The position numbers were made by a program, and so were the translations under genes. From positions 1 through 35,971 of the forward strand of contig JACQEW010000070.1 of assembly GCA_016200365.1 (NCBI GenBank): a DNA stretch of 35,971 nucleotides, written 5' to 3'. Below the pieces are notes generated by a model that saw nothing but the letters and a program-made list of their open reading frames with translations, was not told the origin of the DNA and did no database searches. Positions 97 to 35,971 of this stretch are shown one piece after another. The stretch comes from Nitrospinota bacterium. Lineage in GTDB: Bacteria > Nitrospinota > Nitrospinia > UBA9942. Each line of letters starts with the position of its first letter. Positions within the stretch are counted from its first letter, which is position 1.

Positions 97-876
97 ATGA
101 TACCAAGAATCATAGTTAAAAAAGTAATGTCAAAAGGCATAATATCCGTAAGTCCGGATACCACGCTAAAAAGGGCTGCCGAAATAATGAAATCGCAGAA
201 GATAGGGAGTCTTATTGTCAAAGAAGGTGAGGGGCTTGCCGGTATAGTTACAGAGGTAGACTTTACCCACAAGATAATGACAGGCGAGCTTGACCCTTAT
301 AAAATGACTGTCAGGGATATAATGAGCTCGCCCATTATCAGCATAGAGGCTGACGAGTCTATTGTAGAAGCTCAGGAATTAATGAAGAAAAGGGCGGTAA
401 GACATCTGATTGTAACAGAGAAGGGGAAACCTGCCGGCGTCGTATCGGCAAGAGACCTTGTCCATTTTGAATATCCTGAGGAGGGTGAGCCGTTCTGGCC
501 CAACCATGCAATAAAAAACGCCATGGTTATGTTAGTATGCCTGGGTATTTTAATGACCATTGCCACCTTCAGTCCTGCACCGATGGAGTCTAAGGCAGAC
601 CCATTTTCAACCCCTGAGCATATAAAGCCCCACTGGTATTTCCTTTTTTCCTATCAGCTATTGAAGGCTGCCGAGGTTTTTAAATCAATACATATCGAGC
701 TCCCAAAACTTATAGGCGTCCTCGGACAGGGGGTAATAATATTTTTCATATTATTACTTCCTTTCCTGGATAAGAATCCGGAAAGAGTTTACAGAAAAAG
801 GGCTGTGGCTATAAGTATCGGGATTTTTATAACACTATTGGTAGTTATTTTGACGATATGGGGATATATTTCGTGA
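97..876 (+). CDS. CBS-domain pair fused to a cytochrome b6f subunit IV / cytochrome b C-terminal-domain protein
   Basis: ORF 64..876 has GTG at 64 and ATG at 97 and 127; the start is uncertain. The N-terminal half has two CBS-like repeats (VMSKGIISVSPDTTLKRAAEIMKSQKIGSLIV; IMSSPIISIEADESIVEAQELMKKRAVRHLIV). The C-terminal half matches PetD hallmarks (GEPFWPN, ADPFSTPEHIKPHWYF, KLIGVL) with three hydrophobic helices. Confidence 0.85.
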   Translation: MIPRIIVKKVMSKGIISVSPDTTLKRAAEIMKSQKIGSLIVKEGEGLAGIVTEVDFTHKIMTGELDPYKMTVRDIMSSPIISIEADESIVEAQELMKKRAVRHLIVTEKGKPAGVVSARDLVHFEYPEEGEPFWPNHAIKNAMVMLVCLGILMTIATFSPAPMESKADPFSTPEHIKPHWYFLFSYQLLKAAEVFKSIHIELPKLIGVLGQGVIIFFILLLPFLDKNPERVYRKRAVAISIGIFITLLVVILTIWGYIS

Positions 877-2159
877 AAAAGACAGAAGCAAGAGGCAAGA
901 AGCAAGAAGCAAGAAGTCAGAAGCAAGAATCTCTTGCCTCTTGCCTCTTGCCTCTTGCCTCTTGTTTCCTGCTTCTTGCCTCTTGCCTCTTGCCTCCTGT
1001 GGCAGCATGGGCAGAGGACACTTGCATATCGTGTCATAGGGAATCGGCAGAAGAGAGGGTAAAAGTTTCTATATCAGAGTGGGAAAAGAGTATTCACAAG
1101 ATTGAAAAGGTTAAGTGCCACGACTGCCACGGCGGAGATCCTGAATCAAAAGAAGGAAGCGGTGCACATAAAGTCAATTTTATCGGGAAGCCTGCGAGGG
1201 CAGATATACCGAAATTCTGCGGCAGGTGTCATATTCGTCCATTAAACGATTATCGTAAGAGTAAGCATGAGAGACTCCTGTCCGTGAAAAAGGAAGATGG
1301 CGGCGCCACATGCATTGACTGCCACGGATATCACAGGATAAAAACAAAAAAAGATACCGAGTCTCTTACCTATTATTTAAATGTTCCGCAGACATGCAGC
1401 AGGTGCCATTCCGATCCTGCGAGGATGAAACCATTTGATATGCCAACCAATCAATTTGAACTTTATGAGAAAGGGACGCATGGAGCTATCTTATACGGTA
1501 AGGTGCAGGAGGTAAGCAGGACATCAGCGCCTAATTGTGCCGTATGTCATGGGCATCATGACTCTATGATCTCAACCCATCAGGATATACCCCGCATCTG
1601 CGGTAAATGTCATCTGTCAACCTTTGATAATTTCAAAGAGGGACTTCACTTCGATGCCCTGAAAAAATCAGGGGAGCCGTCATGTGCTTACTGCCATGGT
1701 AATCATAAGGTAATAAGACCGAAGGGTGAGGTATTCGCCGGTTTCAAAAAGGGGGAGTGCGGAGAATGCCATGAAAAATCTTCGGAAGAATTTAAGGTGG
1801 GACTCAATATACAAGGCAGTATAGAAAGACTTGAAAGTTTAAGGAGAGAAGCGAAAAACAGTATCGAAGATGTAAAAAAATATGGAAGAAATACTGCAGA
1901 TTTGGAACAGTTGTATACCGAGCTCAATGCAAATATTCTCATGATTGCCCCTGCAAGCCATTCCCTTGATTTGGATGGGATAAATAAATATGTTGATAAA
2001 ATTTCCACCATATCGGAGGATATTAAAAGGAAGGTAGATGAATTTAAAATGGAGATAAGACATCGTTATGTGGTATATGTCATCTCTATGATAATAATCC
2101 TCACTGCAGTTATTATACTTTTCACACAGCTTTTAATTTATAAAAAGAGTGAGGCATGA
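858..2159 (+). CDS. Membrane-anchored nonaheme c-type cytochrome
   Basis: Nine CXXCH motifs: CISCH, CHDCH, CGRCH, CIDCH, CSRCH, CAVCH, CGKCH, CAYCH, CGECH. The N-terminus resembles a signal peptide ending AWA-ED, and there is a C-terminal TM helix (VVYVISMIIILTAVIILFTQLLIY). ATG at 858 overlaps the upstream gene. An in-frame GTG at 873 forms a GTGA overlap with the upstream stop. Confidence 0.9.
   Translation: MGIYFVKKTEARGKKQEARSQKQESLASCLLPLASCFLLLASCLLPPVAAWAEDTCISCHRESAEERVKVSISEWEKSIHKIEKVKCHDCHGGDPESKEGSGAHKVNFIGKPARADIPKFCGRCHIRPLNDYRKSKHERLLSVKKEDGGATCIDCHGYHRIKTKKDTESLTYYLNVPQTCSRCHSDPARMKPFDMPTNQFELYEKGTHGAILYGKVQEVSRTSAPNCAVCHGHHDSMISTHQDIPRICGKCHLSTFDNFKEGLHFDALKKSGEPSCAYCHGNHKVIRPKGEVFAGFKKGECGECHEKSSEEFKVGLNIQGSIERLESLRREAKNSIEDVKKYGRNTADLEQLYTELNANILMIAPASHSLDLDGINKYVDKISTISEDIKRKVDEFKMEIRHRYVVYVISMIIILTAVIILFTQLLIYKKSEA
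884..995. repeat. Heptad hairpin, GCAAGA family: about 6.5 AGAAGCA-type units followed by 9 CTTGCCT-type units
   Basis: Units were counted directly. The purine arm is 884-929, the short loop is TCT at 930-932, and the pyrimidine arm is 933-995. The whole hairpin lies inside the 5' end of the nonaheme cytochrome ORF. Confidence 0.85.
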
Positions 2160-3660: not shown

Positions 3661-5475
3661 ATGGCTGAGAAATTAAAAAGAACTCACAACTGCGGGGAGT
3701 TGAGGAGCGGCAATGCAGACGAGGCAGTTATACTTGCCGGATGGGTTCACAGACGGAGGGATCACGGCGGGCTTATCTTTATAGATTTAAGGGACAGGAA
3801 GGGGATTACACAGATCGTGCTCAACCCGGAGATTGATAAAATCGCACATACAAAGGCTCATGAGATAAGGAGCGAATATGTGCTTACAGTTAAGGGGAAA
3901 GTGGTTAAAAGACCTGAAGGGACGGCAAATTATAAGATAGGCACAGGGGAGATCGAAGTTATCGCAGAGGACATGGAAATCCTGAACGAATCAAAACCTT
4001 TGCCATTCTTAATAGAAGAAGGCGAGGAGGTATCGGAGATGCTGAGATTAAAATACAGATACCTCGATTTAAGGAGACCTTCACTCAGAGATAATATCAT
4101 ATTGAGGCACAGGGTTGTGAAGAAGGTGAGGGATTTTCTTGACAGCAGGGGTTTTCTGGAGATAGAGACACCCTTTCTCACTAAGAGCACGCCTGAAGGG
4201 GCAAGGGATTATCTTGTGCCGAGCAGATTGAATCCGGGCAAATTTTACGCCCTGCCGCAGTCGCCGCAATTATTCAAGCAAATACTGATGGTGGCAGGAT
4301 ATGAAAAATATTTTCAGGTGGTGAGGTGCTTCCGGGATGAAGATTTGAGGGCAGACAGACAGCCTGAATTTACCCAGATAGACATTGAGATGTCCTTCAT
4401 AGACAGGGAAGATTTGCTGCCGCTCATGGAAGAGATGATGTATGAGATATTCAAGTCATCCATATTCGTCGAGATACCGAGACCCTTTCCTGTCTTGAGC
4501 TACCATGAGGCGATGAACAGATTCGGCAGCGACAAACCCGATACGAGATTCGGGCTGGAGCTAAAGGATATAACATCGCCTGCCTCTAAATCGGATTTCA
4601 AGGTCTTTGCTGAAGCAATAAAAAATGGCGGGGAAGTAAGGGGGATTAATGCAAAGGGGTGCGCCGATTTCTCAAGAAAGGATCTGGACGATTTAACAGA
4701 GGAGTCAAAAATTTTCGGGGCAAAGGGGCTTGCATGGATAAAGATTACACCGGATGGTGTTCAATCTCCGATAGTGAAGTTTTTCTACCCCCCTGTATCC
4801 CCCCTTACAAAGGGGGGAGTGGAAGGGGTTGGGCTTCTTGACGAGATAGTAAGGATAATGGATGGAAAAGCCGGAGACTTGCTCCTCTTTGTTGCAGACA
4901 AGCCTAAGATTGTCTTCGATTCTCTATCTCATCTCCGTCTGAAGTTGGGAGAGAGATTAAAATTAATAGATGAAAATAAATTCAATTTTTTATGGGTAAC
5001 TGATTTCCCTCTGTTAGATTGGGATGAGGAGGGAAAAAGATGGGTTGCAATGCACCATCCCTTCACATCCCCTGTGGATGAAGACATACCCCTGTTTAAA
5101 ACCGACCCAAAGAAAATGAGGGCAAAGGCATACGACCTTGTTTTAAACGGCTCGGAGGTCGGAGGGGGGAGCATCAGGATACACAGAGGGGAGATTCAGA
5201 AACAGATGTTCGATGTCCTTGGATTGACAGAGGAAGAGGCAAAGGCAAAATTCGGCTTTCTCCTTGAGGCGCTTGAATACGGGACACCGCCCCACGGAGG
5301 GATTGCCTTTGGGCTCGACAGGCTCATGGCAATTCTCACAAATTCAAAATCCATCCGCGATGTGATAGCATTCCCGAAAACACAGAAGGCTGTCTGCCTT
5401 ATGACCGATGCGCCATCGAATGTAGAAAAGAGGCAGTTGAAGGAATTGAGCATCAAGCTCGATACCTTACAATGA
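3661..5475 (+). CDS. aspS: Aspartate--tRNA ligase (bacterial type)
   Basis: 604 aa. The N-terminal OB fold reads [20 protein letters not shown]. Class II motifs are present ([31 protein letters not shown]), along with a bacterial-type insertion domain. Confidence 0.95.
4786..4833. repeat. In-frame mini-palindrome inside aspS (CCCCCCTT-ACA-AAGGGGGG plus a G-run), encoding [15 protein letters not shown]
   Basis: The core hairpin 4799-4817 was read directly. The same architecture occurs at 7178-7223, 14108-14140 and 35906-35947. Confidence 0.7.
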
Positions 5476-6785
5476 AAAAAATAATAATCCTTTTATTGAT
5501 TACAATATCCCTTACATCCATCGCCTTTTTCGGATATAAAAGCTATGGAAAGAAGGGAAACTCCCCTGAGATTAAAACAGTTGAGGTTAAGAGGGGTGAT
5601 TTAACATTAGCTGTTGAGGCAACGGGGTCTGTAGAGCCAAAATTTAAGGTAGAGGTGAAGTCCAAGGCGAGCGGAGAGATTATCCATTTCCCCTTTGAAG
5701 AGGGTGATACGGTTAAGAGAGGCGATCTCTTGCTGAAGGTTGACAAATCCGATGAAGAAAGGAATGTGGCAAGGGAGGATGCGAACATCCTTACCCTTAG
5801 GGCAAAATTGGGGCAGGCAAAGGCGGCTCTCGATCTCCAAAAGATTGAATACGAGACTTCAAAGAAGAATACAAAGGCGGATATGGATTATGCTGTTCTC
5901 AGCCTCGATGATGCAGAGGTCAGGCTAAAAAGAAAGAAGGAGCTTTTTAACGAGAAATTGATTGCCAGAGAGAGCCTCGATGAAGGACAGACTGCTTATG
6001 ACCTGTCAAAGACAAAACTTGAGCAGGCTAAAGCCAGGATGGAGTCATTGAAGGGCATAGAGCAAAGTATAAAGATTAAAGAGAAGGAGATTGAATTAAT
6101 AGAAGGGGAGATAAAAAAGGCGGAGATAGCCCTTGAGCAGGCAAAGGAGAGATTAAGGGAGACCGAGGTTGCCGCACCGCTATCCGGGATTATCATAGAA
6201 AAGAGGGTTGAGAAGGGGCAGATTATATCATCGGGAATATCCACGGTTACCGGAGGCACTCACCTTGCCACCATTGCTGATATGAGCAGCATATTTGTTG
6301 TAGCAGATGTGGATGAGACAGATATTGGAAAGGTGAAGGCAGGGCAGGAGGTCAAGATTACGACAGATGCCTACACGGGCAGGGTTTTTCATGGAAGGGT
6401 TGACAGGATTGCACCGATGGGTGTGGCGGAGAACAGGATAATAATCTTTAAGGTAAGGACAGAGGTTACCGGGGAAGGAAGGGAGCTTTTAAAGACCTCC
6501 ATGACGGCAAATGTGCAGATAATCATCGAGACAAAGGAAAATGTCCTTCAGATTCCCGATGAGGCGATAAGAGAGGGGAACGGAAGCCATTTGGTCTATG
6601 TTATGAAAGACGGCAACCCTGAAATGCGAAAGATAAAGAAAGGCATCGGCAACGGAATGTATAGCGAGATTACAGAAGGTGTTGCCGAAGGTGAAAGGGT
6701 GGTTATAAGCGGCTTTTCAGGAGAAAAGAATAATCAGAAAACAGTATCCCAGAATCCTGCACGGGGAATGAGGATGTTAAGATAG
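5472..6785 (+). CDS. Efflux periplasmic adaptor (HlyD/MacA family membrane fusion protein)
   Basis: N-terminal signal anchor, a lipoyl-like hairpin ([11 protein letters not shown] ... [16 protein letters not shown]), a long coiled coil and beta-barrel segments. It forms an ATGA overlap with the aspS stop. Confidence 0.85.
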
Positions 6786-6953: not shown

Positions 6954-8930
6954 TTACACCTTCATAACAGGCACTGTTATCGTAAAGGCGGTTCCCTTCG
7001 ATATTTCGCTTTCTACCCTTATCTCCCCTCCATGCTCTTTAATGATTCCATAACTTATGGAGAGCCCCAGTCCTGTCCCTTTCCCAATCTCCTTTGTGGT
7101 AAAGAACGGGTCGAATATCTTTCCTATATATTCATTGGATATTCCATTCCCAGTATCAGAGATGATAACATTTACAAATCCCCCCTCACCCCCCTTTTCT
7201 AAAGGGGGGAATGGAGGGGTTATTCCATTCTTCGTCTCAACCTTAATCTTCCCGCCGCCGTTTGTTGCGTCCAGAGCATTGTGTATAATATTCAAAAACA
7301 CCTGCTCCAATCCAGCGGCGCTGCCGAATACAGGCGGCAGTCCATTATAAAGAGACTTCTCAAGTATTATGCCTTTTTTGGATATAGAGCCTTCAAGGAA
7401 CATCAGCACCCTTTCTATAATCTTATTTATATCCTGCGGGCTGAATTCATAAGATGACTCCCGTGAAAATGAGAGGAGGTTTCCTGTTATTTTGGAGACC
7501 CTCATAGCATGGTGCATCATAGCATTCATATCCTTAATAACCTTTTCCGGTATATCGCCGTTTGTATTCTCCATCTTTAACGCCTCTATCCTGTTTATTA
7601 TGATGCCTATAGGGTTATTTATCTCATGTGCAACCCCTGCCGCAAGCAGACCCAGAGATGCCATTTTTTCGGAGTGAATCAATTGCTTCTCATAATCCCT
7701 CACCTGCTTTGTCCTCTCCTCCACCTTTTCCTCGAGGCACCGGCTGTATATCTTGAGCTTCTCCGCCATATTATTAAACTCGGCCGCCACATCCTCAACC
7801 TCATCGCCGCTTCTTATATCCAGCCTGTAATCCAGATTCCCTTTTCCTATCAATTGAACACCCTCTTTTAGCTTTGAAAGCGGATGGGTAAGCATTTTGG
7901 AAATGAATACACCAATGAGTATGGTCAGGAGAACGGCAGCAAGAATTGTAGCTATAAACAGTCTTTTATAATCCTTTACGGCTGCTGTCAGGAGGTTCTT
8001 AGGATAGCTCTCGACAACCGTATAATAAAACTCCTTATTCCTTTCATCGGGGAATACAGCCGTATATGCGAACAGATTCTCATCATCATCCATCACTACT
8101 CCCGACCTGCCGGATAATACCTGAGAAACCACTACTTTTGAATATACATCATTTATATTATCGGGAGACTCGCCTGTATTTAACAAACTCTCCTCCGTCT
8201 CCCATTCGGGATTTAAAAAATAGAATCCCCTGTTGTTCAGAAGGAATATTCGGGAGGTTTTATCTACAATATGCCTCTTCATAGTATCGTAGAGATGCCT
8301 TCCCGTTACATCGAGGTATATAGCGCCCATCCATTTCCCGCTCCTGCCGTAAACAGGGGTGATATAGCGTATCAGGGCTATATTTGAGAGGTTAAGACCT
8401 TTAATCATCCGGCTTATCAATGGTATTGAAGCAACCTCACCCTGTGATAAATTTGCAGCCACATAAAAATGACTACTCCCTCTTTGATTATGCAGACTGC
8501 TTTTCGGAAGTATGACAGGATGGCGCATGTCATAGGCAACCAATGCTATCTCGTCTCCGTTCCGGGATAAAAAGCCTACCTGCAGATAAACCCCTTTTTG
8601 CTCTACAAGGTTAAAAAACTCTTTCTCCAGAAGGGTCCTCCAGTATGTAAAGGAGGCGATGTCATTTAATTCTATCGCCTCTAAAAGATACTCCAGCGGA
8701 GCAGAAGACCGGAGATAAAGCAAATCACCCTTGGAATTATCCAGATGGTTCTCTATATCCTTGCCCCTGGAAAAGACATCGAGGTACATTTTCCTCAGAG
8801 TATCATCCTGCAGAGAATTGCTTGCGGATTTTATGCTGTGATAGCCGAAGTATCCGATTGGCAGGATCGCTGCCAGCATCAAAGAGAGGAATATCTTGTT
8901 CTGGATTCTGGAAAAGAAATTGATTTTCAT
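6954..8930 (-). CDS. Sensor histidine kinase: TM, Cache-like periplasmic domain, TM, HAMP, HisKA, HATPase_c
   Basis: H-box AHEINNPIG, plus N/G boxes (IIHNALDAT, DTGNGI, GTGLGLS) and HAMP (LTHPLSKLKEGVQLIGKGNLDYRL). ATG at 8930 (MKINFF); the track start at 8945 is TTG. Confidence 0.9.
   Translation of the reverse strand: MKINFFSRIQNKIFLSLMLAAILPIGYFGYHSIKSASNSLQDDTLRKMYLDVFSRGKDIENHLDNSKGDLLYLRSSAPLEYLLEAIELNDIASFTYWRTLLEKEFFNLVEQKGVYLQVGFLSRNGDEIALVAYDMRHPVILPKSSLHNQRGSSHFYVAANLSQGEVASIPLISRMIKGLNLSNIALIRYITPVYGRSGKWMGAIYLDVTGRHLYDTMKRHIVDKTSRIFLLNNRGFYFLNPEWETEESLLNTGESPDNINDVYSKVVVSQVLSGRSGVVMDDDENLFAYTAVFPDERNKEFYYTVVESYPKNLLTAAVKDYKRLFIATILAAVLLTILIGVFISKMLTHPLSKLKEGVQLIGKGNLDYRLDIRSGDEVEDVAAEFNNMAEKLKIYSRCLEEKVEERTKQVRDYEKQLIHSEKMASLGLLAAGVAHEINNPIGIIINRIEALKMENTNGDIPEKVIKDMNAMMHHAMRVSKITGNLLSFSRESSYEFSPQDINKIIERVLMFLEGSISKKGIILEKSLYNGLPPVFGSAAGLEQVFLNIIHNALDATNGGGKIKVETKNGITPPFPPLEKGGEGGFVNVIISDTGNGISNEYIGKIFDPFFTTKEIGKGTGLGLSISYGIIKEHGGEIRVESEISKGTAFTITVPVMKV
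7178..7223. repeat. In-frame mini-palindrome inside the kinase ATPase domain, encoding PPFPPLEKGGEGGF
   Basis: Plus strand reads ATCCCCCCTCACCCCCCTTTTCTAAAGGGGGGAATGGAGGGGTTAT. The core hairpin is 7189-7209. Confidence 0.7.
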
Positions 8931-8934
8931 AATA

Positions 8935-9392
8935 GCAATGAGCAACGAGCAATGAGCAATGAGTATTATTTTTGGTATCTCTGTTTTTGTATAGAGACTT
9001 TCAGCCCCCCAATGATGCGAGAAACCTCAATAGCTAAATTACTTATATAATCGAATTCTTCCATGGTAATATAACCCACATCCATTGATACATATAATTG
9101 AGAACGGACTTCAGCACATGAAGCCTTCGCAATCACTATAAAACGATGAAATTCTGATCTGCTACCTCTCTCAAAACCTTCAGCAAGGTTAGACATGATA
9201 GAAACTGAAGATCTTTGAATTTGTTCACGAAGCCCAAAATCTTTCAAAAAAGGACTCTTTTTTGTCAGCAAATAGACCTGTTTTGTCAATTCTCTTGCCT
9301 TCTGCCATGCAACAAGGTCTTCAAATCTATTAACTTTCATCTTTATTCCTCCCTTTTTAATTGCTCATTGCTCATTACTCATTGCTCATTGC
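8935..9392. repeat. Cassette bounded by 29-nt inverted heptad repeats (GCAATGA units), enclosing one gene
   Basis: The left arm 8935-8963 (GCAATGAGCAACGAGCAATGAGCAATGAG) matches the reverse complement of the right arm 9364-9392 at 27 of 29 positions. Confidence 0.8.
8966..9340 (-). CDS. Four-helix-bundle protein ('23S rRNA intervening sequence protein' family)
   Basis: Family hallmarks [18 protein letters not shown] and [48 protein letters not shown] precedes the ATG at 9340. Confidence 0.85.
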
Positions 9393-10277
9393 TTAATACA
9401 AACTGGCGGTCATTTCATAATCCCTGACACACCTGAACCCGATAATATGGCTCACAGCCTCCGGCTCAACACCATCTTTGCTGGCGCACCGCACCTTTGG
9501 CGACAGGTCAACCCATGAGCCCCCCTTCACCACCTTCTTGTCTTTTCCTTGCTTTTGGTCACACCCGGGACAGCCGCCAAACCGGCTGTCCGTCCACTCC
9601 CTGACATTCCCGCCCATATCATGAACTCCATAAGGGCTTACATCTCCCTTGGCAATGCCGACAGGATTGCCTGTATTTACATTACATATCCCCTCTATAA
9701 TGTTTTCTAAAACCGCCTCTGCAGTGCTGGTTAATGCAGGGTCATATTTATCGCCCCACGGATAAGCCCTTCCATCCGTCCCCCTTGCAGCCTTTTCCCA
9801 TTCCTCCTCTGTAGGGAGCCTCTTTCCCGCCCACTTTGCATATTCCTTTGCATCATACCAGCTTATAAAAAGGACAGGATAATGAGCCTTTCCCGATGGA
9901 TACATGCCATTACTCCAATGCTTTGGTGCATGGTATCCGGTTGCATCTATAAATTTTTTATACTGTGCATTGGTTACTTCATATTTGTCAATAAAGAAAG
10001 ACTTTACATAGACCTTCCTCTTAGGCTTCTCGTTTTCATACAGATACCCTTCCATGCCTCCCTTATTGCCATAGACCTTTTTTACTTCCTTAATGTCGTC
10101 GTCGTCGCTCCCCATAACAAATTCACCTTCAGATATAAACACCATGCCCGTTCCATCAGCGCCTCCGCCACCATGTATATTCAGAGGGAGAGAAAAGACA
10201 GGGTAAACAATGAAGAACATAAACAATAAATTCTTTAATTTGGAAATTGGAAATTGGAAATTGGAAATTTTGCTCAT
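9393..10277 (-). CDS. Exported FGE-sulfatase (SUMF1/EgtB/PvdO) family protein, paralog 1
   Basis: YEVTNAQYKKF, GKRLPTEEEWEKAARGTDGRAYPWGD, GNVREWT, KGGSW, GFRC. The AGGAGG RBS and an ATGA overlap link it to the upstream gene. It has an extra CPGC loop. Confidence 0.85.
   Translation of the reverse strand: MSKISNFQFPISKLKNLLFMFFIVYPVFSLPLNIHGGGGADGTGMVFISEGEFVMGSDDDDIKEVKKVYGNKGGMEGYLYENEKPKRKVYVKSFFIDKYEVTNAQYKKFIDATGYHAPKHWSNGMYPSGKAHYPVLFISWYDAKEYAKWAGKRLPTEEEWEKAARGTDGRAYPWGDKYDPALTSTAEAVLENIIEGICNVNTGNPVGIAKGDVSPYGVHDMGGNVREWTDSRFGGCPGCDQKQGKDKKVVKGGSWVDLSPKVRCASKDGVEPEAVSHIIGFRCVRDYEMTASLY
10240..10267. repeat. Four TTGGAAA heptads (single arm) inside the 5' end of FGE paralog 1
   Basis: Counted directly. 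They are translated as ISNFQFPI. The same heptads in the same coding sense occur at 28064-28091. Confidence 0.8.
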
Positions 10278-11704
10278 CCTTCACCTCCTGCCAAAACAAA
10301 TTTAATCTTTCCTCCTTCTTTTTCAGCCTTAAGAATATAGGCATGCTTCTTTACTTCTCTGTTGGCAGTAAAAGTTGTCATGCCTGTTGCACCATGAAAA
10401 TCCTTTATCCCCGCAAGAGAATCCCTTATATGTGTCGGTCTCATGGACGGGGCTTTACGGATTGCCTCAGCCGTCATCTTCAAGGCATCATAGCCCAATG
10501 CGGCAATTCTGTCGGGATAAGTCCCGTGTTTTTTCTTATAAGAATCAACGAAACCTTTAATATGGGGCAATTGAGAGTCTGCATAAAAACCTGAATAGAT
10601 TATTGTCCCGATAATTGCATCTTTTCCGTCCTTTATAAAATTTTCCGTAATAAGCTCCTCTCCGCCTATCAAAGGAGCCTTTATACCCTGCCTCCTCATC
10701 TCCTTTACTATTTTTATCCCTTCCAGAGGGTCTCCTGTATAAACAACCGCATCAGGAGATTTTGATTTGATTTTGCCTACCTGAAATTCTATACTGGAGT
10801 CATCTTTTGAGATATTTGCAGTATTTTCTGACCATAGAAAAACATCCTCCGCCACATTACCCCCTTTATTTATTATAGCCCTTTTAAAAAGTCCTGCAAG
10901 GGTTATTGAATAATCGTTGCTCATTGACGAGATAAGGGCAAAGTTTTTTATAGCGGCTTTGTTGATACAGTAGTCAATAAGCTCGGTTACCGCCGTCTCA
11001 TCCGACAGGGTATTTCTGAACATATAAGGTCCCGTATCCCCTATCCTCCTCCTCGTCCCCGCGGAAATGAGGATAGTCTGATGGTCGTTCAGCTTTTTGC
11101 TTGCGCTGAATGTCACCTCTCCCGTAGGACTGCCGATAATAGCCGCCACACCTTCGGATATAAATTTATCAACTGCAGCGATAGTCTCTGTCATATTTCC
11201 TGCTGTATTATAATGAATAACCTCCAGGAGCTGTCCGTTGATGCCTCCCGATGAGTTTATCTCCTCTGCCGCAAGCTGAGCTCCCATAAGCGTTTTTAGT
11301 CCATATTCGGAGAGCTCGCCTGTTTCTGCGCCCAATACCCCCACCTTCATCTTCCGCTCCGATTCCAGAGAAATCTCATTTTCTCCCTTCTTCTCAAAAT
11401 CAACCTCTGCCGATACCTTTTCCCTATCTTCACGGGTTGCTATCTTCTTGCCCGATTCAGCCCATTCCTTCTCCCTCTGCTCCATCCTCAATTCTATCTC
11501 GCTTTTCTTTTCTTCCTTATTGCAGCCTGGATAGAATAAAAATAGCGATACCAATAAAAGGACAAAAACTTGATTTTCACCGCAGAGACGCAGAGGCACA
11601 GAGAAAAATTCTAAACCTCTTAATAATATTTTTAATCTCTGCGTCTCCGCGCCCCTGCGGTTTATAATTTCCTTAAAAAAATTTTTAAAATTTTCTTGCA
11701 ACAT
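10274..11704 (-). CDS. Periplasmic binding lipoprotein, LivJ/LivK-like (Peripla_BP_6 type)
   Basis: KVGVLGAETGELSEYG..AQLAAEEINSSGGINGQLLEV..AAIIGSPTG is typical of branched-chain amino-acid binding proteins. Lipobox-like FYPGC. The ATG at 11704 has a GGGAGG RBS; the track start 11743 and an in-frame GTG at 11599 are alternatives. Confidence 0.8.
   Translation of the reverse strand: MLQENFKNFFKEIINRRGAETQRLKILLRGLEFFSVPLRLCGENQVFVLLLVSLFLFYPGCNKEEKKSEIELRMEQREKEWAESGKKIATREDREKVSAEVDFEKKGENEISLESERKMKVGVLGAETGELSEYGLKTLMGAQLAAEEINSSGGINGQLLEVIHYNTAGNMTETIAAVDKFISEGVAAIIGSPTGEVTFSASKKLNDHQTILISAGTRRRIGDTGPYMFRNTLSDETAVTELIDYCINKAAIKNFALISSMSNDYSITLAGLFKRAIINKGGNVAEDVFLWSENTANISKDDSSIEFQVGKIKSKSPDAVVYTGDPLEGIKIVKEMRRQGIKAPLIGGEELITENFIKDGKDAIIGTIIYSGFYADSQLPHIKGFVDSYKKKHGTYPDRIAALGYDALKMTAEAIRKAPSMRPTHIRDSLAGIKDFHGATGMTTFTANREVKKHAYILKAEKEGGKIKFVLAGGEG
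11564..11674. repeat. About 110-bp repeat element, copy 1 (GCAGAGA-family hairpin 11579-11661 plus conserved flanks)
   Basis: The left block AAAAACTTGATTTTCACCGCAGAGACGCAGAGGCACAGAGAAAAAT and right block TCTCTGCGTCTCCGCGCCCCTGCGGTTTATAATTTCCTT are nearly identical to 26282-26391. Only the loop differs. Confidence 0.85.
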
Positions 11705-11784: not shown

Positions 11785-11827
11785 CTATCTTTAAAGCCCT
11801 TACACAATTTAACACTGGAGGTGTGTA

Positions 11828-12463
11828 ATGAAGATCGCTTCTTTGGTTATAGTTTTAAGCATTTTTGTATCTGTAAATATTGCAAACGCTGCCGACGATG
11901 ATATGGCTCTCGTATCAGGCGGCAAATTCTCTTTTGGCGAAGATAAGAAGAAAATAGAGCTTGGAGACTTTTATATTGATAAATATGAGGTAACCAATGC
12001 CCAGTATAAAAAGTTCAGACCGGAGCATGAAATCCCTGACGGAAAAGAGAATCACCCTGTAGCAGACATCTCCTATTTTGATGCAGAGGATTACTGCAAA
12101 TCGGCAGGCAAGAGAATTCCAACCTCTGAGGAGTGGGAAAAGGCTGCACGGGGAACGGATGGAAGGGCTTATCCGTGGGGCGATAAATTCGATTCCAAAA
12201 AGGCGAATACAAGCGAGGGAGGCAAAGGCGGCACGGTAAAAGTTGGATCCTACGAGGGGGGGAAGAGCCCTTACGGCGCTTATGATATGTCCGGCAATGT
12301 ATGGGAATGGGTTGATGCATGGGACAGCAAAAAGCAGTACAGGGTTGCACGGGGAGGCTCTTACTTTGAGGGTGATGATATGAACAGAACCACATCCTCG
12401 CTTATGAGTATTCCGGATGACATTCACGAGTATATCGGCTTCAGGTGCGCAAAGAGCAAGTAA
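11828..12463 (+). CDS. Exported FGE-sulfatase family protein, paralog 2
   Basis: Signal peptide MKIASLVIVLSIFVSVNIANA. YEVTNAQYKKF, GKRIPTSEEWEKAARGTDGRAYPWGD, GNVWEWV, RGGSY, GFRCAK. GGAGG RBS. Confidence 0.9.
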   Translation: MKIASLVIVLSIFVSVNIANAADDDMALVSGGKFSFGEDKKKIELGDFYIDKYEVTNAQYKKFRPEHEIPDGKENHPVADISYFDAEDYCKSAGKRIPTSEEWEKAARGTDGRAYPWGDKFDSKKANTSEGGKGGTVKVGSYEGGKSPYGAYDMSGNVWEWVDAWDSKKQYRVARGGSYFEGDDMNRTTSSLMSIPDDIHEYIGFRCAKSK

Positions 12464-13147: not shown

Positions 13148-13528
13148 TCACAGGGTTTTTAGATATTCAATTATATCACTTCTCTTATCATCATTAGACA
13201 TCACGGGGATTTTCGGCATGTGCTTTTTAAAATTTTTTTTGTGCCCCTGAGCTATAGGATCGCTACTATCCATCATCTTTTTCGGGTCTTTAAGCCATCT
13301 ATCAATCCACTCAATATCCCTTCGTTTGGTCACATTCTTTAGTCCTGGTCCTGTAGAAAGCTGCTCGGTTGTCTTATGGCATTGGCGACACCTCTTTTTA
13401 AACAACTCCTCACCTGCCGAGGCATCGCCAGCATAGGATGGTAGTTTAAACAAAAGAAGCAAGAAACAAGATGCAAGATACAAGATTTTTCTTGCTTCTA
13501 ACTTCTTGCTTCTTGTTTCTTGTCTCAT
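13148..13528 (-). CDS. Exported monoheme class I cytochrome c
   Basis: CRQCH motif followed by STGPGL, with a distal MP motif. Signal peptide MRQETRSKKLEARKILYLASCFLLLLFKLPSYA-GD. It forms an ATGA overlap with the upstream stop. Confidence 0.9.
   Translation of the reverse strand: MRQETRSKKLEARKILYLASCFLLLLFKLPSYAGDASAGEELFKKRCRQCHKTTEQLSTGPGLKNVTKRRDIEWIDRWLKDPKKMMDSSDPIAQGHKKNFKKHMPKIPVMSNDDKRSDIIEYLKTL
13452..13525. repeat. Heptad hairpin, GCAAGA family, entirely inside the cytochrome c signal-peptide codons
   Basis: On the + strand, a purine arm 13452-13486 and a pyrimidine arm 13491-13525. Confidence 0.8.
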
Positions 13529-14205
13529 TCCAGTAGAACCACCTTCATACCCATCCCGCCGCTTATCCAGTCAATCCTCCCCTTTGCGCCGGGTATATAC
13601 TTTAAAACAATCTCCTTCGCCTTATTGCCATCCGCAAAAGAGACATGTCTCTCGCTGAATGAACCGCCGCCCTCTTTCTCCTTTAATGTTATCTCTATTT
13701 TAATGTCATTTGCATCATCGAGTCTCATCGTAGTAACCAGCCATTCGCCTTTCCCAAGCTTGAGGATCTCATCCTTTATTTTATCCGACGGAACTGCCGA
13801 AGCGCCTGCAGACGGCTTCTTTTCCATGTTTTTCTGAGCTGTTTTGATATTAGCCTCTACTGCTTTAAGCAATCTTTCATCTTTAAATTCCTCTTTGTAT
13901 ATGGCTGCCATAGCCCTTGCAGCCTCCATGAGGAAAATACTCTCATCTGTCTCAACCTCGCCTGACATCGCATATTCAACAATCCCCTTTACTTCGTCAG
14001 GCACTTCGCCCTTATGTTTTTTTATTAACGCCTTCATCTCTTTGCTGTTTTTAGAGGAAAAGGCTTTAAAAAATTTCTGTGCCATGCCTTCCTCTTCTGC
14101 ATTGCAGACAACCCCCTGACCCCCTTTGTTAAGGGGGACTATCGCACCCATACCTGAAACCGCTGCTGCTAACAAAAGCGATACTAACAATCTTTTAATA
14201 TTCAT
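13525..14205 (-). CDS. Hypothetical exported protein
   Basis: ATG at 14205 with an AAGGAG RBS gives MNIKRLLVSLLLAAAVSG. The track start 14295 runs through a hairpin repeat. I recognise no family. Confidence 0.7.
   Translation of the reverse strand: MNIKRLLVSLLLAAAVSGMGAIVPLNKGGQGVVCNAEEEGMAQKFFKAFSSKNSKEMKALIKKHKGEVPDEVKGIVEYAMSGEVETDESIFLMEAARAMAAIYKEEFKDERLLKAVEANIKTAQKNMEKKPSAGASAVPSDKIKDEILKLGKGEWLVTTMRLDDANDIKIEITLKEKEGGGSFSERHVSFADGNKAKEIVLKYIPGAKGRIDWISGGMGMKVVLLE
14108..14140. repeat. In-frame mini-palindrome encoding VPLNKGGQGVV
   Basis: The minus strand reads AGTCCCCCTTAACAAAGGGGGTCAGGGGGTTGT. Outside the hairpin loop it is identical to 35906-35938. Confidence 0.8.
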
Positions 14206-14227
14206 TTTATATCTCCTTAAAAAAACT

Positions 14228-14368
14228 AACCACAGAGACACTGAGACACAGAGAAAGAAAAAAAGATTAAAAAAGAGGAAAGATGCAAGAGGCAAGAAAA
14301 AAAATCTTGCTTCTGGCTTCTTACTTCTTGTTTCTTGTTTTTCTCTGTGCCTCCGTGTCTCTGTGGTT
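14228..14368. repeat. Two-layer nested hairpin: CACAGAGA-type outer arms around a GCAAGA-type inner hairpin
   Basis: Outer arms are AACCACAGAGACACTGAGACACAGAGAAAG (14228-14257) and TTTTCTCTGTGCCTCCGTGTCTCTGTGGTT (14339-14368). The inner hairpin is 14271-14337. Confidence 0.8.
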
Positions 14369-18398: not shown

Positions 18399-19346
18399 CT
18401 AATTAATCTTCTCCTCTGTCACAAGCTTAATGAATATATCCTCGAGGCTCATGCCTACAGGACGCATCTCATGGAGAGACCAGTTCTTTCTGACAATAAC
18501 AGGCGGTATATCCTTGCCTGCATCAACCATATCCTTTTTCAGCTCTATCAAATAGGCATTAATATTGTCTGCCCCGTTCTCTTTTACAGATACCCTCGAT
18601 ACGCCGTTTATTTTACCTACCTCTGACAATACCTCCTTCTCAGGTCCGCCGACCCTTATTAAAATCTGCTGGGACCTCTGGAGCTGGGCGGTAAGGTTCT
18701 GCGGCGTATCTACTGCTACCAGCCTGCCTTCATTTATTATTACGACCCTCTGGCATATCATACTGACTTCCGGAAGGATATGGGTGCTTAATATAACCGT
18801 CCTTCTCCCTCCGAGGCTCTTTATCAGGCTCCTTATCTCTATTATCTGCCTTGGGTCTAATCCAATAGTCGGCTCATCGAGGATAAGAACCTCAGGGTCA
18901 TTTATCAGTGCCTGCGCCAGTCCCACCCTCTGCCTGTAGCCCTTTGAAAGCTCTCCTATATATTTCTTTGAAACTGCATTCAGAGCGCAGTCATCCATTA
19001 CATGCGAGACCCTTCTTTTTACATCCCTCCTGTCAACCCCTTTAAGTCCTGCCACAAATTCAAGATACACGGGAACCTGCATATCGGTATAAAGAGGGAC
19101 ACTCTCAGGAAGATAGCCTATCCGCTTGCGAACCTCAAGAGAATCCTCAAAGACATCAAAACCTGCTATCTTAGCCTTTCCGCTTGTGGCTGGCATGAAA
19201 CAGGTAAGGATTCTCATAGTAGTTGTTTTGCCGGCACCGTTAGGACCTAAAAAACCGAGAACCTCACCCTTCTCCACGGTAAAGGTAACATCATTAATCC
19301 CTCTTGCATCGCCGTATTTTTTTGTAAGATTCTCTACTTCAATCAT
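18399..19346 (-). CDS. ABC transporter ATP-binding protein (GldA-like)
   Basis: Walker A GPNGAGKTT, signature LSKGYRQR, Walker B VLILDEPT. Confidence 0.9.
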   Translation of the reverse strand: MIEVENLTKKYGDARGINDVTFTVEKGEVLGFLGPNGAGKTTTMRILTCFMPATSGKAKIAGFDVFEDSLEVRKRIGYLPESVPLYTDMQVPVYLEFVAGLKGVDRRDVKRRVSHVMDDCALNAVSKKYIGELSKGYRQRVGLAQALINDPEVLILDEPTIGLDPRQIIEIRSLIKSLGGRRTVILSTHILPEVSMICQRVVIINEGRLVAVDTPQNLTAQLQRSQQILIRVGGPEKEVLSEVGKINGVSRVSVKENGADNINAYLIELKKDMVDAGKDIPPVIVRKNWSLHEMRPVGMSLEDIFIKLVTEEKIN

Positions 19347-19358
19347 AAAAAAATTTTA

Positions 19359-19664
19359 CCACAAAGGCACAAAGGACACAAAGAAAAGAAAGGAGAAAGG
19401 AGAAAATGGGAAAAAAATTATAAAATAGAACACGGATGACACGGATGAGACGGATTGACACAGATAAAATAAATAAAGTTGAGTTGTTAAGTAGTTAAAC
19501 TACTCAACCACTTACTACTCAACTTTGTTCTTAATCAGCGAGAATCCGTTTAAATCAGCGTCATCTGCGTTCTATTAAGTTTTTGCATTCTCCCTTTCAC
19601 TATTTCCCCATTTCTCCTTAATCCTTTTCTTTTATTTTCTTTGTGCTCTTTGTGTCTTTGTGGT
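19359..19664. repeat. About 305-bp four-layer concentric imperfect palindrome
   Basis: Layers, from outside in: CACAAAG-type, GGAGAAA-type, ACGGATG-type (GAACACGGATGACACGGATGAGACGGATT facing AATCCGTTTAAATCAGCGTCATCTGCGTTC) and GTTGAGT-type, with the apex near 19497. Confidence 0.8.
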
Positions 19665-19671
19665 GAAAGAT

Positions 19672-19762
19672 AATAAAAAAAGAACGACCACCTAAACAAC
19701 CCCCCTCACCCTTACCCTCTCACCTATGGAGAGAGGAAAGATGAGGGGAATCAGGTGGTCGT
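19672..19762 (-). terminator. Intrinsic terminator of the 19783..20907 cytochrome gene
   Basis: A 79-nt imperfect hairpin has a perfect outer 10 bp (ACGACCACCT 19684-19693 / AGGTGGTCGT 19753-19762). On the minus strand it is followed by TCTTTTTTTATT. Confidence 0.7.
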
Positions 19763-23508: not shown

Positions 23509-24186
<678 letters not shown>

Positions 24187-24234
24187 AAGTCTGTCTTCTG
24201 TCATCTGTCTTCTGTCATCTGTCTTCTGACTTTT

Positions 24235-24919
24235 ATGACTATTTTCGAGGCATATACAGGCGGACTTCATAATTTTTTTTCCATCTGGTTTTTCTGTCTA
24301 TTTCAGGTAACTCCCTTCTTCATAGCTTATCTCACAGGATTAACAATGATGGAGATAGGGGACAGAAATTGGAGACAGGGGGTGCCGGGAATATTGACCG
24401 GCAGTATACTATGCCTGATAGGATTCATGTCAGGATATATACTTCTTGGCTCAACATCTTTATCCATCAGCAGCACACTTTTTCGCTATTTATATGTTCT
24501 GAATCAGATGGGCGGCGTAATACTGCTCATAACAGGACTTTACTTTACAGGATTATTCCGTCTGCCCGAGCATACGGGAAATATGTACAGGAGACATATA
24601 GGACTTTTAACGGGACTCTCCTTTGCTTTTGCCTACCAGCCCTGCGTAACACCAACCTTAACCTCCATCTATAACATGACAAAAAATCCCGATACGGTGT
24701 CAAGAGGCACTCTCCTGCTCGGCTTTTATTCGCTCGGAATAGCCACAGCTTTTTTATCCGTTGGTCTTTTAATCTCAAGCCTGCTTTCTGCCGACAAAAT
24801 AAGAGGCATTAGAAGAATAATACGATATGTAAGCGGAGTGGTAATTATTATTATGTCAATCCTCATACTGGCAAACTGGATGACCATATATAAAAGTTAT
24901 CTGGTGGGGTGGGCGGTGC

Positions 24920-24930
<11 letters not shown>
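24235..24930 (+). CDS. ccdA: CcdA/DsbD-family thiol:disulfide electron-transfer membrane protein
   Basis: Six hydrophobic helices. Conserved Cys in TM1 (FFCLFQVTPFF) and in the PC..P box (YQPCVTPTL). Confidence 0.8.
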
Positions 24931-25774
<844 letters not shown>

Positions 25775-25853
25775 AAAATATTCACAATTAATCCTGTCAA
25801 GTTCTTAATTTTCTTTGTGTTCTTTGTGTCTTTGTGGTGAATTATGTTTTTAA

Positions 25854-26291: not shown

Positions 26292-26391
26292 TTTTACCGC
26301 AGAGATGCAGAGGCACAGAGAAAAATATAAATATTTTAAAAAGATTTTAATATCTCTGCGTCTCCGCGCCTCTGCGGTTTATAATTTCCTT
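26282..26391. repeat. About 110-bp repeat element, copy 2 (hairpin 26296-26378 plus conserved flanks)
   Basis: Same orientation and near-identical arms and flanks as 11564-11674. Confidence 0.85.
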
Positions 26392-27189: not shown

Positions 27190-27219
27190 AAGTCAGAAGC
27201 CAGAAGTCAGAAGTCAGAA
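27188..27219. repeat. Four and a half AGAAGTC-type heptads (single arm)
   Basis: Counted directly. I found no complementary arm nearby. The repeat overlaps the stop codon of paralog 3. Confidence 0.75.
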
Positions 27220-35498: not shown

Positions 35499-35971
35499 AT
35501 GAATATTCACCGCAGAGACGCAAAGACGCAGAGAGAAACAATAAGGAGAAATGAGGAAAGAAAGGATTTCTTTTCTACATCTCCTAACCTTCTTTTTTTC
35601 TCCTTAATCTTTTTTTTGTTTTTATATTTCTCTGTGTCTCCGCGTCTCTGCGGTGAAACAGCCTTTGCCTCGGACTGTGACTGGGTAGAGGCAACAGGTG
35701 AAGCAGTCGTAGAAAATATCACCCCAGACGAAGCCAGACAACTTGCCATTAACCGGGCAAGAATATCAGCAATAGAAAGCAAGACAGGGGTAAAAGTTCA
35801 TGGCACAACAATGGTCAAAGACTATAACCTCATGGCAGATATAGTTCAAACACTATCTCAAGGCTATATCATAGACGAAAAGATTATCAAATGGGAGCAG
35901 GGAGAAGTCCCCCTTACTAAAGGGGGTCAGGGGGTTGTAATCCCCCTAACAACCTACAAAGTAAAATTAAG
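35499..35971 (+). CDS. Partial (3'-truncated by the window) exported protein, LPP20-like
   Basis: This open frame runs from the ATG at 35499 to the window end and is absent from the track because it has no stop. It translates as MNIHRRDAKTQRETIRRNEERKDFFSTSPNLLFFSLIFFLFLYFSVSPRLCGETAFASDC...DEARQLAINRARISAIESKTG. Confidence 0.6.
   Translation, partial: MNIHRRDAKTQRETIRRNEERKDFFSTSPNLLFFSLIFFLFLYFSVSPRLCGETAFASDCDWVEATGEAVVENITPDEARQLAINRARISAIESKTGVKVHGTTMVKDYNLMADIVQTLSQGYIIDEKIIKWEQGEVPLTKGGQGVVIPLTTYKVKL
35508..35655. repeat. Two-layer nested hairpin: GCAGAGA-type outer arms around a GGAGAAA-type inner hairpin
   Basis: CACCGCAGAGACGCAAAGACGCAGAGAGAAAC (35508-35539) faces TTCTCTGTGTCTCCGCGTCTCTGCGGTG (35628-35655). 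The inner purine and pyrimidine arms span 35541-35610. Confidence 0.8.
35906..35947. repeat. In-frame mini-palindrome encoding VPLTKGGQGVVIPL
   Basis: AGTCCCCCTTACTAAAGGGGGTCAGGGGGTTGT, followed by a second small hairpin AGGGGG-TTGTAAT-CCCCCT. Confidence 0.8.

Follow-up and report, generated by a model that had tools for sequence, protein, structure and literature searches.

In-frame copies of a palindromic repeat, very probably of the BoxC/PIT/triplex-motif family, in genes of a Nitrospinota contig, and a candidate link of this family to DUF559 endonuclease genes

Four in-gene copies of one motif

We analysed a stretch of 35,971 nucleotides (nt) from a Nitrospinota bacterium (GenBank assembly GCA_016200365.1, contig JACQEW010000070.1, positions 1 to 35,971; hereafter the window), in which a short palindromic DNA element lies inside four protein-coding frames. 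The first host is aspS (3661..5475, + strand), which encodes an aspartate-tRNA ligase of 604 residues, assigned through its homologues and the Pfam matches tRNA-synt_2, GAD and tRNA_anti-codon. The second is a HAMP/HisKA/HATPase_c sensor histidine kinase (6954..8945, - strand; Pfam and homologues). The third encodes a secreted hypothetical protein of 226 residues, counted from MNIKR, with no Pfam match (13525..14205, - strand), and the fourth is the 5' part of an open reading frame (ORF) running off the 3' end of the window (35634..35971, + strand; start codon uncertain). At sites 3 and 4 the start codons are ambiguous, because the open frames extend into inverted repeats of about 120 nt, described in the last section. 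We consider it very likely that the four sites are in-frame insertions of the repeat family known as BoxC, PIT elements or intrastrand triplex motifs (TM).

The pattern CCCCCTT-N1-8-AAGGGGG has exactly four matches in the window (4800-4816, 7190-7208, 14120-14137 and 35909-35926) and none in 100 dinucleotide-preserving shuffles of it, and the pattern extended by a second G-run still finds all four sites. Runs of five C are not over-represented (63 observed against 81 expected), which argues for a specific composite motif and not for an effect of composition. The variant found here consists of a C5-6T2-3 arm, a loop of 3-4 nt, an A2-3G5-6 arm, a loop of 3-7 nt and a third arm G4-6(A/T)TT.

Site 1 (4785..4834, + strand), located by pattern match and hairpin fold, begins with an outer C6 (4788-4793), followed by the C-arm CCCCCCTT (4799-4806), the loop ACA (4807-4809), the G-arm AAGGGGGG (4810-4817), the second loop AGTGGAA (4818-4824) and the third arm GGGGTT (4825-4830); it encodes residues 376-392 of AspS (17 residues). 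On the coding strand, site 2 (7178..7226, - strand) reads GGAATAACCCC-TCCATT-CCCCCCTTT-AGA-AAAGGGGGG-TGA-GGGGGGAT, with the peptide GITPPFPPLEKGGE. Both carry an extra outer arm on either side, as C6-N5-hairpin-N7-G4 at site 1 and C4-N6-hairpin-N3-G6ATTT at site 2, and are therefore compact double-sided palindromes. Sites 3 and 4 have the extra outer arm on a single side only. The coding strand of site 3 (14110..14137, - strand) is CCCCCTT-AAC-AAAGGGGG-TCA-GGGGGTT, and site 4 (35909..35946, + strand) is CCCCCTT-ACT-AAAGGGGG-TCA-GGGGGTT, then GTAAT-CCCCC, whose pairing with the third arm is possible. Over 32 nt the coding strands of these two sites, GTCCCCCTTAACAAAGGGGGTCAGGGGGTTGT and GTCCCCCTTACTAAAGGGGGTCAGGGGGTTGT, are identical except for two loop bases.

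All four sites lie in long stop-free frames with the element in frame, and the copies are translated as Pro-Pro-Leu/Phe-x-Lys-Gly-Gly-x-Gly-Gly loops. The right arm, which is the G-arm, is read AAR-GGG-GGN at four of four sites. The left arm of site 2 is in a different register because its spacer between C-run and G-run is 10 nt long, against 7-8 nt elsewhere. As single-stranded DNA every site folds into a hairpin of -7.6 to -14.2 kcal/mol in ViennaRNA, by which only the hairpins were modelled. The z-scores of these folds are modest (-1.2 to -3.3) because shuffled C-run/G-run sequences pair well too.

The initial annotation of this DNA, made from the letters alone, had described four sites of one architecture, in frame and free of stops, with peptides of the form P-L-x-K-G-G-x-G (including VPLTKGGQGVVIPL) and with sites 3 and 4 identical over about 33 nt except in the loop. 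The pattern search (four of four with the second G-run), the ORF analysis and the comparison of sites 3 and 4 (30 of 32 nt the same) recovered each of these features. A correction applies to the start of site 4, which had been placed at 35906: the Val codon begins at 35907. Rfam at gathering thresholds gave no match in the window, nor in 16 of the loci discussed below that combine the repeat with a DUF559 gene, so the element is not a described RNA family. Three other readings were dropped: G-quadruplexes, as there are too few G-runs per strand; terminators, as no T-tract follows; and a tRNA T-arm, as the loop is not T-loop-like.

Filled and empty alleles of the host genes

The closest relatives of the window AspS are 587-680 residues long, and nearly all distant homologues have about 590. 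Besides the window protein, P0002, P0004, P0005 and P0010 carry the site 1 segment. It is absent from P0003, P0006-P0009 and P0011-P0013 (83-90% identity), which read FFKKEILDEIV within KFFKKEILDEIV, and, in the alignment, from every distant Nitrospirota and Schekmanbacteria homologue. In the DNA, the window has 50 nt where the empty allele in L001 has 11 (TAAAAAGGAGA), and is thus 39 nt longer. The Pfam GAD match spans 106 residues against a profile of 95 positions, and the insert aligns to a gap of the solved AspRS structures 6WOM and 1EFW. In the AlphaFold model, residues 378-390 have a predicted local distance difference test score (pLDDT) below 50 and are the only low stretch in a GAD domain at 82-88. 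This model, built on an alignment of 20 sequences, is poor overall (mean pLDDT 55.7), and we use only the local contrast between the domain and the insert.

Two further insertion hot spots were found in aspS of relatives. The second, after Asn-Pro56, holds LSPPFNKGGQGGI, the same element. The third, at LKLI/DEN, holds PSPLEGEGQGE encoded by CCCTCTCCCCTTGAGGGAGAGGGTCAGGGTGAGG, a triplex motif of the E. coli type; with the C5-6T2-3 type elsewhere in aspS, two arm variants therefore coexist in one gene. The LKLI/DEN copy lies in aspS of L002 near position 11794; its carriers are P0002, P0005, P0010, P0012 and P0013, and in P0010 as many as three units follow one another at the hot spot. On the protein tree the three hot spots are filled in a patchy manner, and a phylogeny with a single gain was rejected for this reason. 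Since the filled alleles have lost native codons, this pattern requires either repeated insertion at the same targets or an exchange of alleles by recombination. One homologue, P0014, was left out of the tree: about 290 N-terminal residues are divergent, while from about residue 290 onward it is identical to P0003, and it is probably a chimeric assembly or a recombinant.

Site 2 falls in the ATPase domain of the kinase, with the N box on one side and the G1 box on the other. P0125 and P0132 share the segment, whereas P0129-P0131 and the 13 full-length homologues at greater distance (P0133-P0135 and P0137-P0146) are without it. It is an insertion relative to ZraS, and other solved kinases have long, length-variable loops at this place. 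The loop of other relatives holds unrelated inserts, and it is an insertion hot spot of several repeat families. Within P0127, the equivalent of 7178-7226 contains HSEGEARRISNETQDSSPSFTQGQNDKNK, which resembles another widespread palindromic repeat, often translated as ...EILRFAQNDK... in metagenomic proteins.

For sites 3 and 4 the comparison was made with homologous proteins. The site 3 host has 30 homologues, all of about 211-224 residues, and its empty state was judged from these proteins. The window protein has MGAIVPLNKGGQGVVCN instead of VCELAFS at the signal-peptide cleavage region, the replaced stretch being about 14101-14151; the element is absent from P0242 (82% identical) and from about 25 other homologues. 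The site 4 host has 169 relatives at E<=0.001. Where these have a native loop of about nine residues, QE.K.S.P[IL], the window protein has PLTKGGQGVVIP, with a net gain of 3-4 residues only, which we read from the alignment as a partial insertion that replaced the native loop.

Close homologues (78-96% identical) thus lack the element at sites 1-3. The claim that the element was inserted as a lineage-specific indel therefore holds at these three sites, and only in part at site 4, where a native loop was replaced. It is borne out for the kinase by near relatives and distant homologues alike, which lack the inserted residues. The same residues in unrelated homologues would have spoken for ancestral sequence; the distant homologues of AspS and of the kinase are without the element.

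We resolved the junctions by comparing nearly identical filled and empty alleles. For the kinase pair L124 (empty) and L123 (filled), which are 95.8% identical, AAAAAAT-AAGAACGGAGGAC-TTGTA becomes AAAAAAT-GGAATAATCCCCCCATCCCCCCCTTTAGGAAAGGGGGGCGAAGGGGGAT-TTGTG, so that a 49-nt element stands in place of AAGAACGGAGGAC, with a net gain of 36 nt. At aspS site B, in the pair L125/L126 (95.3% identical), AAATCCT-GAAATTGATAAG-ATTGCAC becomes AAATCC-CCTCTCACCCCCCTTTAATAAAGGGGGGCAGGGGGGGATT-ATTGCAC, a gain of 27 nt. Across 11.5 kb, L123 and L124 also differ by a junction in a spermine-synthase-like gene (+36 nt), by two half-units gained in tandem in a sigma-54 activator (+69 nt) and by further short repeat families within coding sequence.

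Altogether, the copies overwrite about 11-13 nt (2-4 codons) and insert 11-17 codons, with a net gain of 27-39 nt. No target-site duplication was seen at any of the five junctions; a few native codons are replaced instead. At several junctions the native flank resembles the end of the element (GGAGGACTT and GGGGGATTT; GGCAGGATAT and GGGGGATTGAT; AAATCCT and AAATCCCC), and AAGAACGGAGGACTT is an example of an empty target. Within the proteins the element sits in loops, in linkers or at the signal-peptide junction. A miniature inverted-repeat transposable element was rejected as a candidate, since the five junctions have no target-site duplication and the elements measure at most 50 nt against 70-300 bp.

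Family identity and distribution

BoxC was reportedly described by Bergler in 1992, and PIT elements or triplex motifs are said to have been reported by Hoyne and Maher in 2000. The names BoxC, PIT elements and intrastrand triplex motifs (TM, TMECO) succeeded one another (Holder et al. 2015, PMC4666352). TMECO has the form 5'-CCCTCNCCC-N3-6-GGGNGAGGG-N3-GGGNGAGGG and 23 copies in E. coli MG1655, which are always intergenic, include five inverted pairs and have conserved stems with variable loops; they show no promoter or terminator activity and are tied to local genome instability (PMC4666352).

The window copies share with TM the succession of a pyrimidine arm, a loop, a complementary purine arm, a loop and a mirror purine arm (G*G and A*A/T*A triads), and their triplex architecture is read from the sequence; for TMECO, triplex formation has been examined by circular dichroism or NMR (Holder et al. 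2015). All four sites have the TM hairpin, with stems of 7-9 bp and loops of 3-4 nt. The third arm is clear at sites 2-4, which read AAAGGGGG(G)-TGA/TCA-GGGGG(G)ATT/TT, and looser at site 1, where the arm is 4G+TT and the second loop of 7 nt exceeds the 1-6 nt range of the ITxF search. Both sets of repeats are dispersed and multi-copy, are frequently arranged as inverted pairs, vary in presence between close strains and occur in many phyla including Cyanobacteria.

The differences lie in the arms, the location and the neighbouring genes. The window arms are C5-6T2-3 and A2-3G5-6 rather than CCCTCNCCC and GGGNGAGGG and do not follow the TMECO consensus, and the third arm mirrors the G-arm (AAAGGGGG then GGGGGATT) and is not a direct repeat of it. 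The window copies lie in genes and in frame, unlike the E. coli copies, which are reported as intergenic; and the present family brackets DUF559 endonuclease genes, while no linked mobility gene was reported for E. coli TM. Each of the four sites, we conclude, is very probably a solo copy of a single sequence variant of the TM repeats.

The initial annotation had likened the element to Rickettsia palindromic elements (RPE), which Ogata et al. in 2000 reportedly described as insertions of about 100-150 bp lying in frame in protein-coding genes, housekeeping genes included. As an analogy this stands, since both are selfish palindromes tolerated in frame and both place the inserted peptides in surface loops of coding genes. 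As a membership it does not, because the architecture is that of BoxC/PIT/TM; by description, moreover, RPE belong to Rickettsia and relatives, whereas the present elements measure 28-50 nt and are found across bacteria. The small dispersed repeats (SDR) of heterocyst-forming cyanobacteria are another short comparison: Elhai et al. in 2008 are said to have reported them as hairpin-forming mobile sequences of about 21-27 nt that can sit inside genes. Their genomes, like the window, are also rich in heptameric tandem repeats, and we know of no nuclease partner described for them.

We found 15 hairpin copies in the window together with 76 kb of related contigs (four in the 36-kb window and 11 elsewhere). 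Of these, 14 fall within called genes; gltX accounts for two and the sigma-54 activator for three. The in-gene copies keep the frame in every case examined, and in this lineage the G-arm is usually read Lys-Gly-Gly or Lys-Gly-Asp/Glu. The relatives carrying in-gene inserts come from independent JGI, NCBI and ENA assemblies, with sequence divergence between them, and the hosts of the related copies are labelled Nitrospinota or Nitrospinae.

Beyond this lineage, a relaxed pattern matched more than 120 contigs of a viral collection with G+C contents of 31-73%, from which we derived the consensus (AAATCCCCCC-NNN-)CCCCCCTTT-loop-AAAGGGGGG-NNN-GGGGGGATTT. A strict pan-bacterial pattern, CCCCCTTT-N2-4-AAAGGGGG-N2-5-GGGGGATT, has 24 fixed bases and a chance expectation of about 0.05 in 596 Gb at equal base frequencies; site 2 is the sole window copy that matches it. 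In a species-representative genome collection it has at least 120 loci. The matches in metagenome-assembled genomes belong to Thermodesulfobacteriota, Nitrospirota, Schekmanbacteria, Omnitrophota, Patescibacteria, Chloroflexota, Myxococcota, Cyanobacteria and several lineages of Proteobacteria, with Beta- and Gammaproteobacteria among the hits, and those in cultured isolates to Algoriphagus (Bacteroidota), Chromatium, Thiorhodococcus and Pseudoxanthomonas (Gammaproteobacteria), Iodobacter and Geomesophilobacter. Across the family the stems are conserved and the loops variable. Many copies form inverted doublets, in which a hairpin-NNN-G5ATTT unit and an AAATC5-NNN-hairpin unit are separated by 10-40 nt.

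Recurrence of the motif outside the window, on which the initial annotation had made its proposal depend, is therefore clear from the related contigs and from both collections. The census of location and frame gave a divided answer. In the Nitrospinota lineage nearly all copies are in genes, as given above, but in other phyla they are mostly intergenic: at G+C below 0.55, ORFs of 150 codons or more contain 23-38% of the copies but 69-78% of positions drawn at random (120 loci). Copies within ORFs there are read in various frames and in either orientation, none strongly preferred, and the idea of a single obligatory frame was dropped. In-frame copies in other phyla lie mostly at inter-domain linkers. 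Those of Nitrospirota are in a radical SAM protein, CbiG-CobJ (two sites), RecJ and a GH3 hydrolase; others are in a melainabacterium ABC-F ATPase and in a GT4 glycosyltransferase of the isolate Algoriphagus aquimarinus.

Association with DUF559 genes and possible origins

When the 2,948 ORFs of 120 genome loci were clustered all against all, a single small protein recurred apart from common housekeeping families. It belongs to DUF559, by matches to PF04480 (E=1.9e-35), to the YcjD model PRK09767 of NCBIfam and to PDB 3HRL, 'endonuclease-like protein'. At five loci an intact DUF559 gene lies between inverted copies of the element, with the third arm facing the gene on both sides; at a sixth, L144, the DUF559 gene has in-frame stops and the hairpin is of a divergent type. 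We then examined 80 metagenome loci fetched by DUF559 protein patterns alone, 66 of which extend 120 nt or more beyond the gene in either direction. In 31 of these the DUF559 gene adjoins the strict motif, the same as at window site 2, and 15 of the 31 have it at both ends of the gene. The motif occurs at 2.4/kb up to 200 nt from the gene and at 0.13/kb further off, its orientation is biased (35 against 6 upstream, 22 against 8 downstream), and its median gap to the gene is 11 and 10 nt. A generic TM detector found canonically oriented repeats on at least one side in 57/66 loci and on both sides in 43/66, with 6.5/kb within 200 nt compared with 0.35/kb distally (19-fold).

The arm sequence shifts with the divergence of DUF559, and divergent genes carry other arms, including the E. 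coli type. Within each type, changes in the G-arm are matched by mirror changes in the third arm (AAAGAGGGG with GGGGAGAT, AAAGGGAGG with GGAGGGAT and GGGAGAGGG with GGGTGAGGG). We are confident, if a little short of certainty, that the physical association of DUF559 and TM is real. At L232, an intact DUF559 gene is flanked by a CCTCCCC-type repeat, and a tandem array of about 275 nt, each unit of which contains a C5T3-type repeat and a truncated DUF559 fragment, is also present (5211-6280 and 2270-2880).

In E. coli K-12 the DUF559 gene ycjD lies in the fabI-sapF interval (MG1655 NC_000913.3 1351407-1351760). The gene ends (…RRSPSP*) within a BoxC-like hairpin, whose loop contains the stop codon; a complete repeat of the TMECO type follows 165 nt downstream, in the fabI-ycjD spacer (L327, NC_000913.3 1351203-1351421). 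A 61-nt stretch of this spacer matches 19 places in the median E. coli genome. The spacer of fabI (envM) and ycjD is reportedly where BoxC was first described (Bergler 1992). A paper on the EefABC efflux pump names ycjD several times, in the abstract as well as in the text.

Bracketing of stand-alone DUF559 genes by TM repeats is new as far as we checked, and so is the in-gene habit in the Nitrospinota lineage; those portions of the literature on DUF559, ycjD and Vsr-like proteins that we consulted contain no link to these repeats. One study finds a 14-fold enrichment of DUF559 genes in its predicted targets of programmed inversion (PMC9881135), as expected if the genes lie between inverted repeats. 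Two others place the proven homing endonuclease I-Bth0305I in the Vsr/DUF559 clade (PMC3424549, PMC3239194), and DUF559 shares with these enzymes of the EDxHD family the Vsr-like PD-(D/E)xK fold and an E-x-D-G-x-x-H core. Stand-alone DUF559 differs from Vsr and I-Bth0305I in that it is neither intron-encoded nor paired with a cytosine methyltransferase, and its link to the repeat is one of genomic association.

We propose that the TM repeat could be the terminal inverted repeat of a small selfish unit. The unit would consist of a hairpin with its third arm, a DUF559 (Vsr-like PD-(D/E)xK) endonuclease gene of about 120 residues, and the complement of the third arm with a second hairpin. Inverted doublets, compact palindromes and solos such as those in the window would be non-autonomous derivatives without the gene. 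DUF559 may nick or cut at or near sequences like the terminal arm (GGRGGAYTT / AAATCC), and the break may be repaired by copying an existing element through microhomology, a process nearer to homing or templated repair than to cut-and-paste transposition. Among insertions into genes, only copies that keep the frame and bring no stop would have survived.

Taken as a whole, from TM-family insertions through the DUF559-bracketed unit to DUF559-driven templated copying, we hold this chain slightly more probable than its opposite. That DUF559 is the mobilising enzyme is a tentative suggestion, and the in-gene copies may be derivatives that it mobilised. Equally short of an even chance, in our judgement, is the general form of the idea, in which BoxC/TM repeats would be the termini and non-autonomous derivatives of a previously unrecognised, pan-bacterial class of selfish elements, driven by DUF559 and moving through templated repair after a nick or break instead of by classical transposition.

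Several observations weigh against this proposal. We know of no biochemical activity or substrate of stand-alone DUF559 proteins, and no DUF559 gene was found in the window and 76 kb of related contigs (112 kb: window, L001, L002 and L123-L126). The association has no direction, and DUF559 genes could home into pre-existing doublets. Because the DUF559 query was built from motif-containing loci, the 80 test loci may over-represent a repeat-associated subfamily. The TMECO closest to ycjD departs from the canonical orientation, and no transposase, integrase or other mobility gene was reported near the E. coli TM loci (PMC4666352). The similarity of target and element end was counted at only four or five junctions and without statistics, and simple copy-and-paste would not lead one to expect the different loops of sites 3 and 4, which are otherwise identical.

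The main alternative dispenses with the enzyme: hairpin or triplex DNA would stall replication and template switching via microhomology would copy the repeat, with DUF559 as an independent selfish or homing gene in doublets. We regard this as rather unlikely, although the replacement junctions with microhomology and without duplication are explained equally well by template switching, no DUF559 gene lies near the window copies, and in E. coli TM loci are linked to local instability with no mobility genes near (Holder et al., PMC4666352). In-gene hot spots are also shared by unrelated repeats (heptamer arrays, an AATTTTC-flanked hairpin and the TMECO-like element in aspS), which argues for a general, element-independent route. 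What an enzyme-free process fails to explain is the retention of one arm sequence from Patescibacteria to Gammaproteobacteria, as well as the tracking of DUF559 divergence by the arm, the fixed orientation and the spacing of 10-11 nt. A different enzyme is invoked if the copies are ordinary REP/REPIN sequences mobilised by RAYT, a tyrosine transposase of the IS200/IS605 type, and the in-gene copies are the known intragenic minority. The present elements are imperfect palindromes of 20-40 nt, often in inverted doublets, and REPs are likewise short, G+C-rich and imperfectly palindromic and occur as solos and inverted doublets (PMC3116915, PMC3733652, PMC5581495); their RAYT units (REPtrons) also have a single-copy nuclease gene flanked by inverted repeats, and intragenic REPs are documented, tRNA synthetase genes included (PMC3733652). 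However, the flanked gene here is a PD-(D/E)xK Vsr-like DUF559 and not an HUH tyrosine transposase, the GTAG or CGTC terminal tag is missing while flanks and inter-arm bases vary, the mirror-repeat third arm is not a REP feature, and ORF clustering, which covered the 120 loci, returned no recurrent transposase-like family. We therefore judge a REP origin very unlikely.

Selection could in principle act on the peptide, with P-L-x-K-G-G-x-G a convergent linker or binding loop and the DNA palindrome incidental. The surviving copies are indeed all in frame and encode Pro/Gly-rich, loop-compatible peptides, but sites 3 and 4 agree at synonymous positions too, and the same DNA is mostly intergenic in other phyla, is read in more than one frame and in either orientation, and is lacking in close orthologues, so that convergence is highly improbable. 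An artefact of assembly or binning deserves mention since the window and most relatives are metagenome assemblies; with the same in-frame insertion in independent JGI, NCBI and ENA assemblies, the motif in cultured isolates and the frame kept throughout, its probability is close to negligible.

The consistent, oriented and co-varying association makes DUF559 a concrete candidate enzyme for the BoxC/PIT/TM repeats, which count among the oldest unexplained repeats of bacterial genomes and for which published work found neither a function nor a mobility gene, and it suggests a testable function for a domain present in E. coli (YcjD) and across bacteria. If the DUF559-driven proposal is true, a process routinely writes Pro/Gly-rich loops into essential proteins such as aminoacyl-tRNA synthetases in some lineages. 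The repeats of this lineage remodel loops of housekeeping proteins (AspRS, GluRS, histidine kinase and sigma-54 activator), being present or absent among relatives of 83-96% identity, and are a source of rapid indel variation, and as such a hazard for annotation, phylogenetic alignments and metagenome binning.

Other repeats and genes of the window and its relatives

Tandem heptamer arrays, as (AGAAGTC)n, (GCAAGAA)n, (TGCTCAT)n and (AATTTCC)n, occupy most intergenic spacers of the window (868-1008, 9333-9407, 10237-10270, 13448-13531, 14260-14346, 24127-24253, 24912-25056, 27165-27219, 28056-28123 and 34182-34242). Some are followed by a complementary array, giving long hairpins. The arrays resemble the STRR heptamer repeats of cyanobacteria, and the same heptamers flank a triplex-motif copy in the Nitrospirota locus L173. 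Inside a coding sequence of L124 we found a CTCAGCA array.

The second intergenic family comprises the inverted repeats of about 120 nt already mentioned, ACCGCAGAGACGCAGAGGCACAGAGAAAAAT...ATTTCTCTGTGTCTCCGCGTCTCTGCGGT, with a CACAAAG variant, which lie directly upstream of genes. They are located at 11553-11674, 14221-14367, 26270-26391 and 35506-35657, and as paired copies at 19338-19397 with 19622-19684 and at 25672-25729 with 25805-25858. Another in-gene repeat family is seen in the spermine-synthase-like gene of L124 (8224-8290), where a 66-nt in-frame insertion, absent from L123, consists of the hairpin CACGACCCACTATCGTGGGTG flanked by AATTTTC heptamers.

Genes for a '23S rRNA intervening sequence protein' (PF05635, a bAvd-like four-helix bundle) recur beside the kinase and the sigma-54 activator, at 8966-9340 (- strand) in the window, at 6770-7145 in L123 and at 4105-4479 and 10958-11332 in L124; one L123 copy is split into two ORFs. 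The window also contains paralogous FGE-sulfatase-domain genes at 9393-10277 and 11828-12463 and, by DNA similarity, a third copy at about 26600-27040. These paralogues share DNA segments of 70-87% identity in direct and inverted orientation (I1-I3, I5, I8 and D7).

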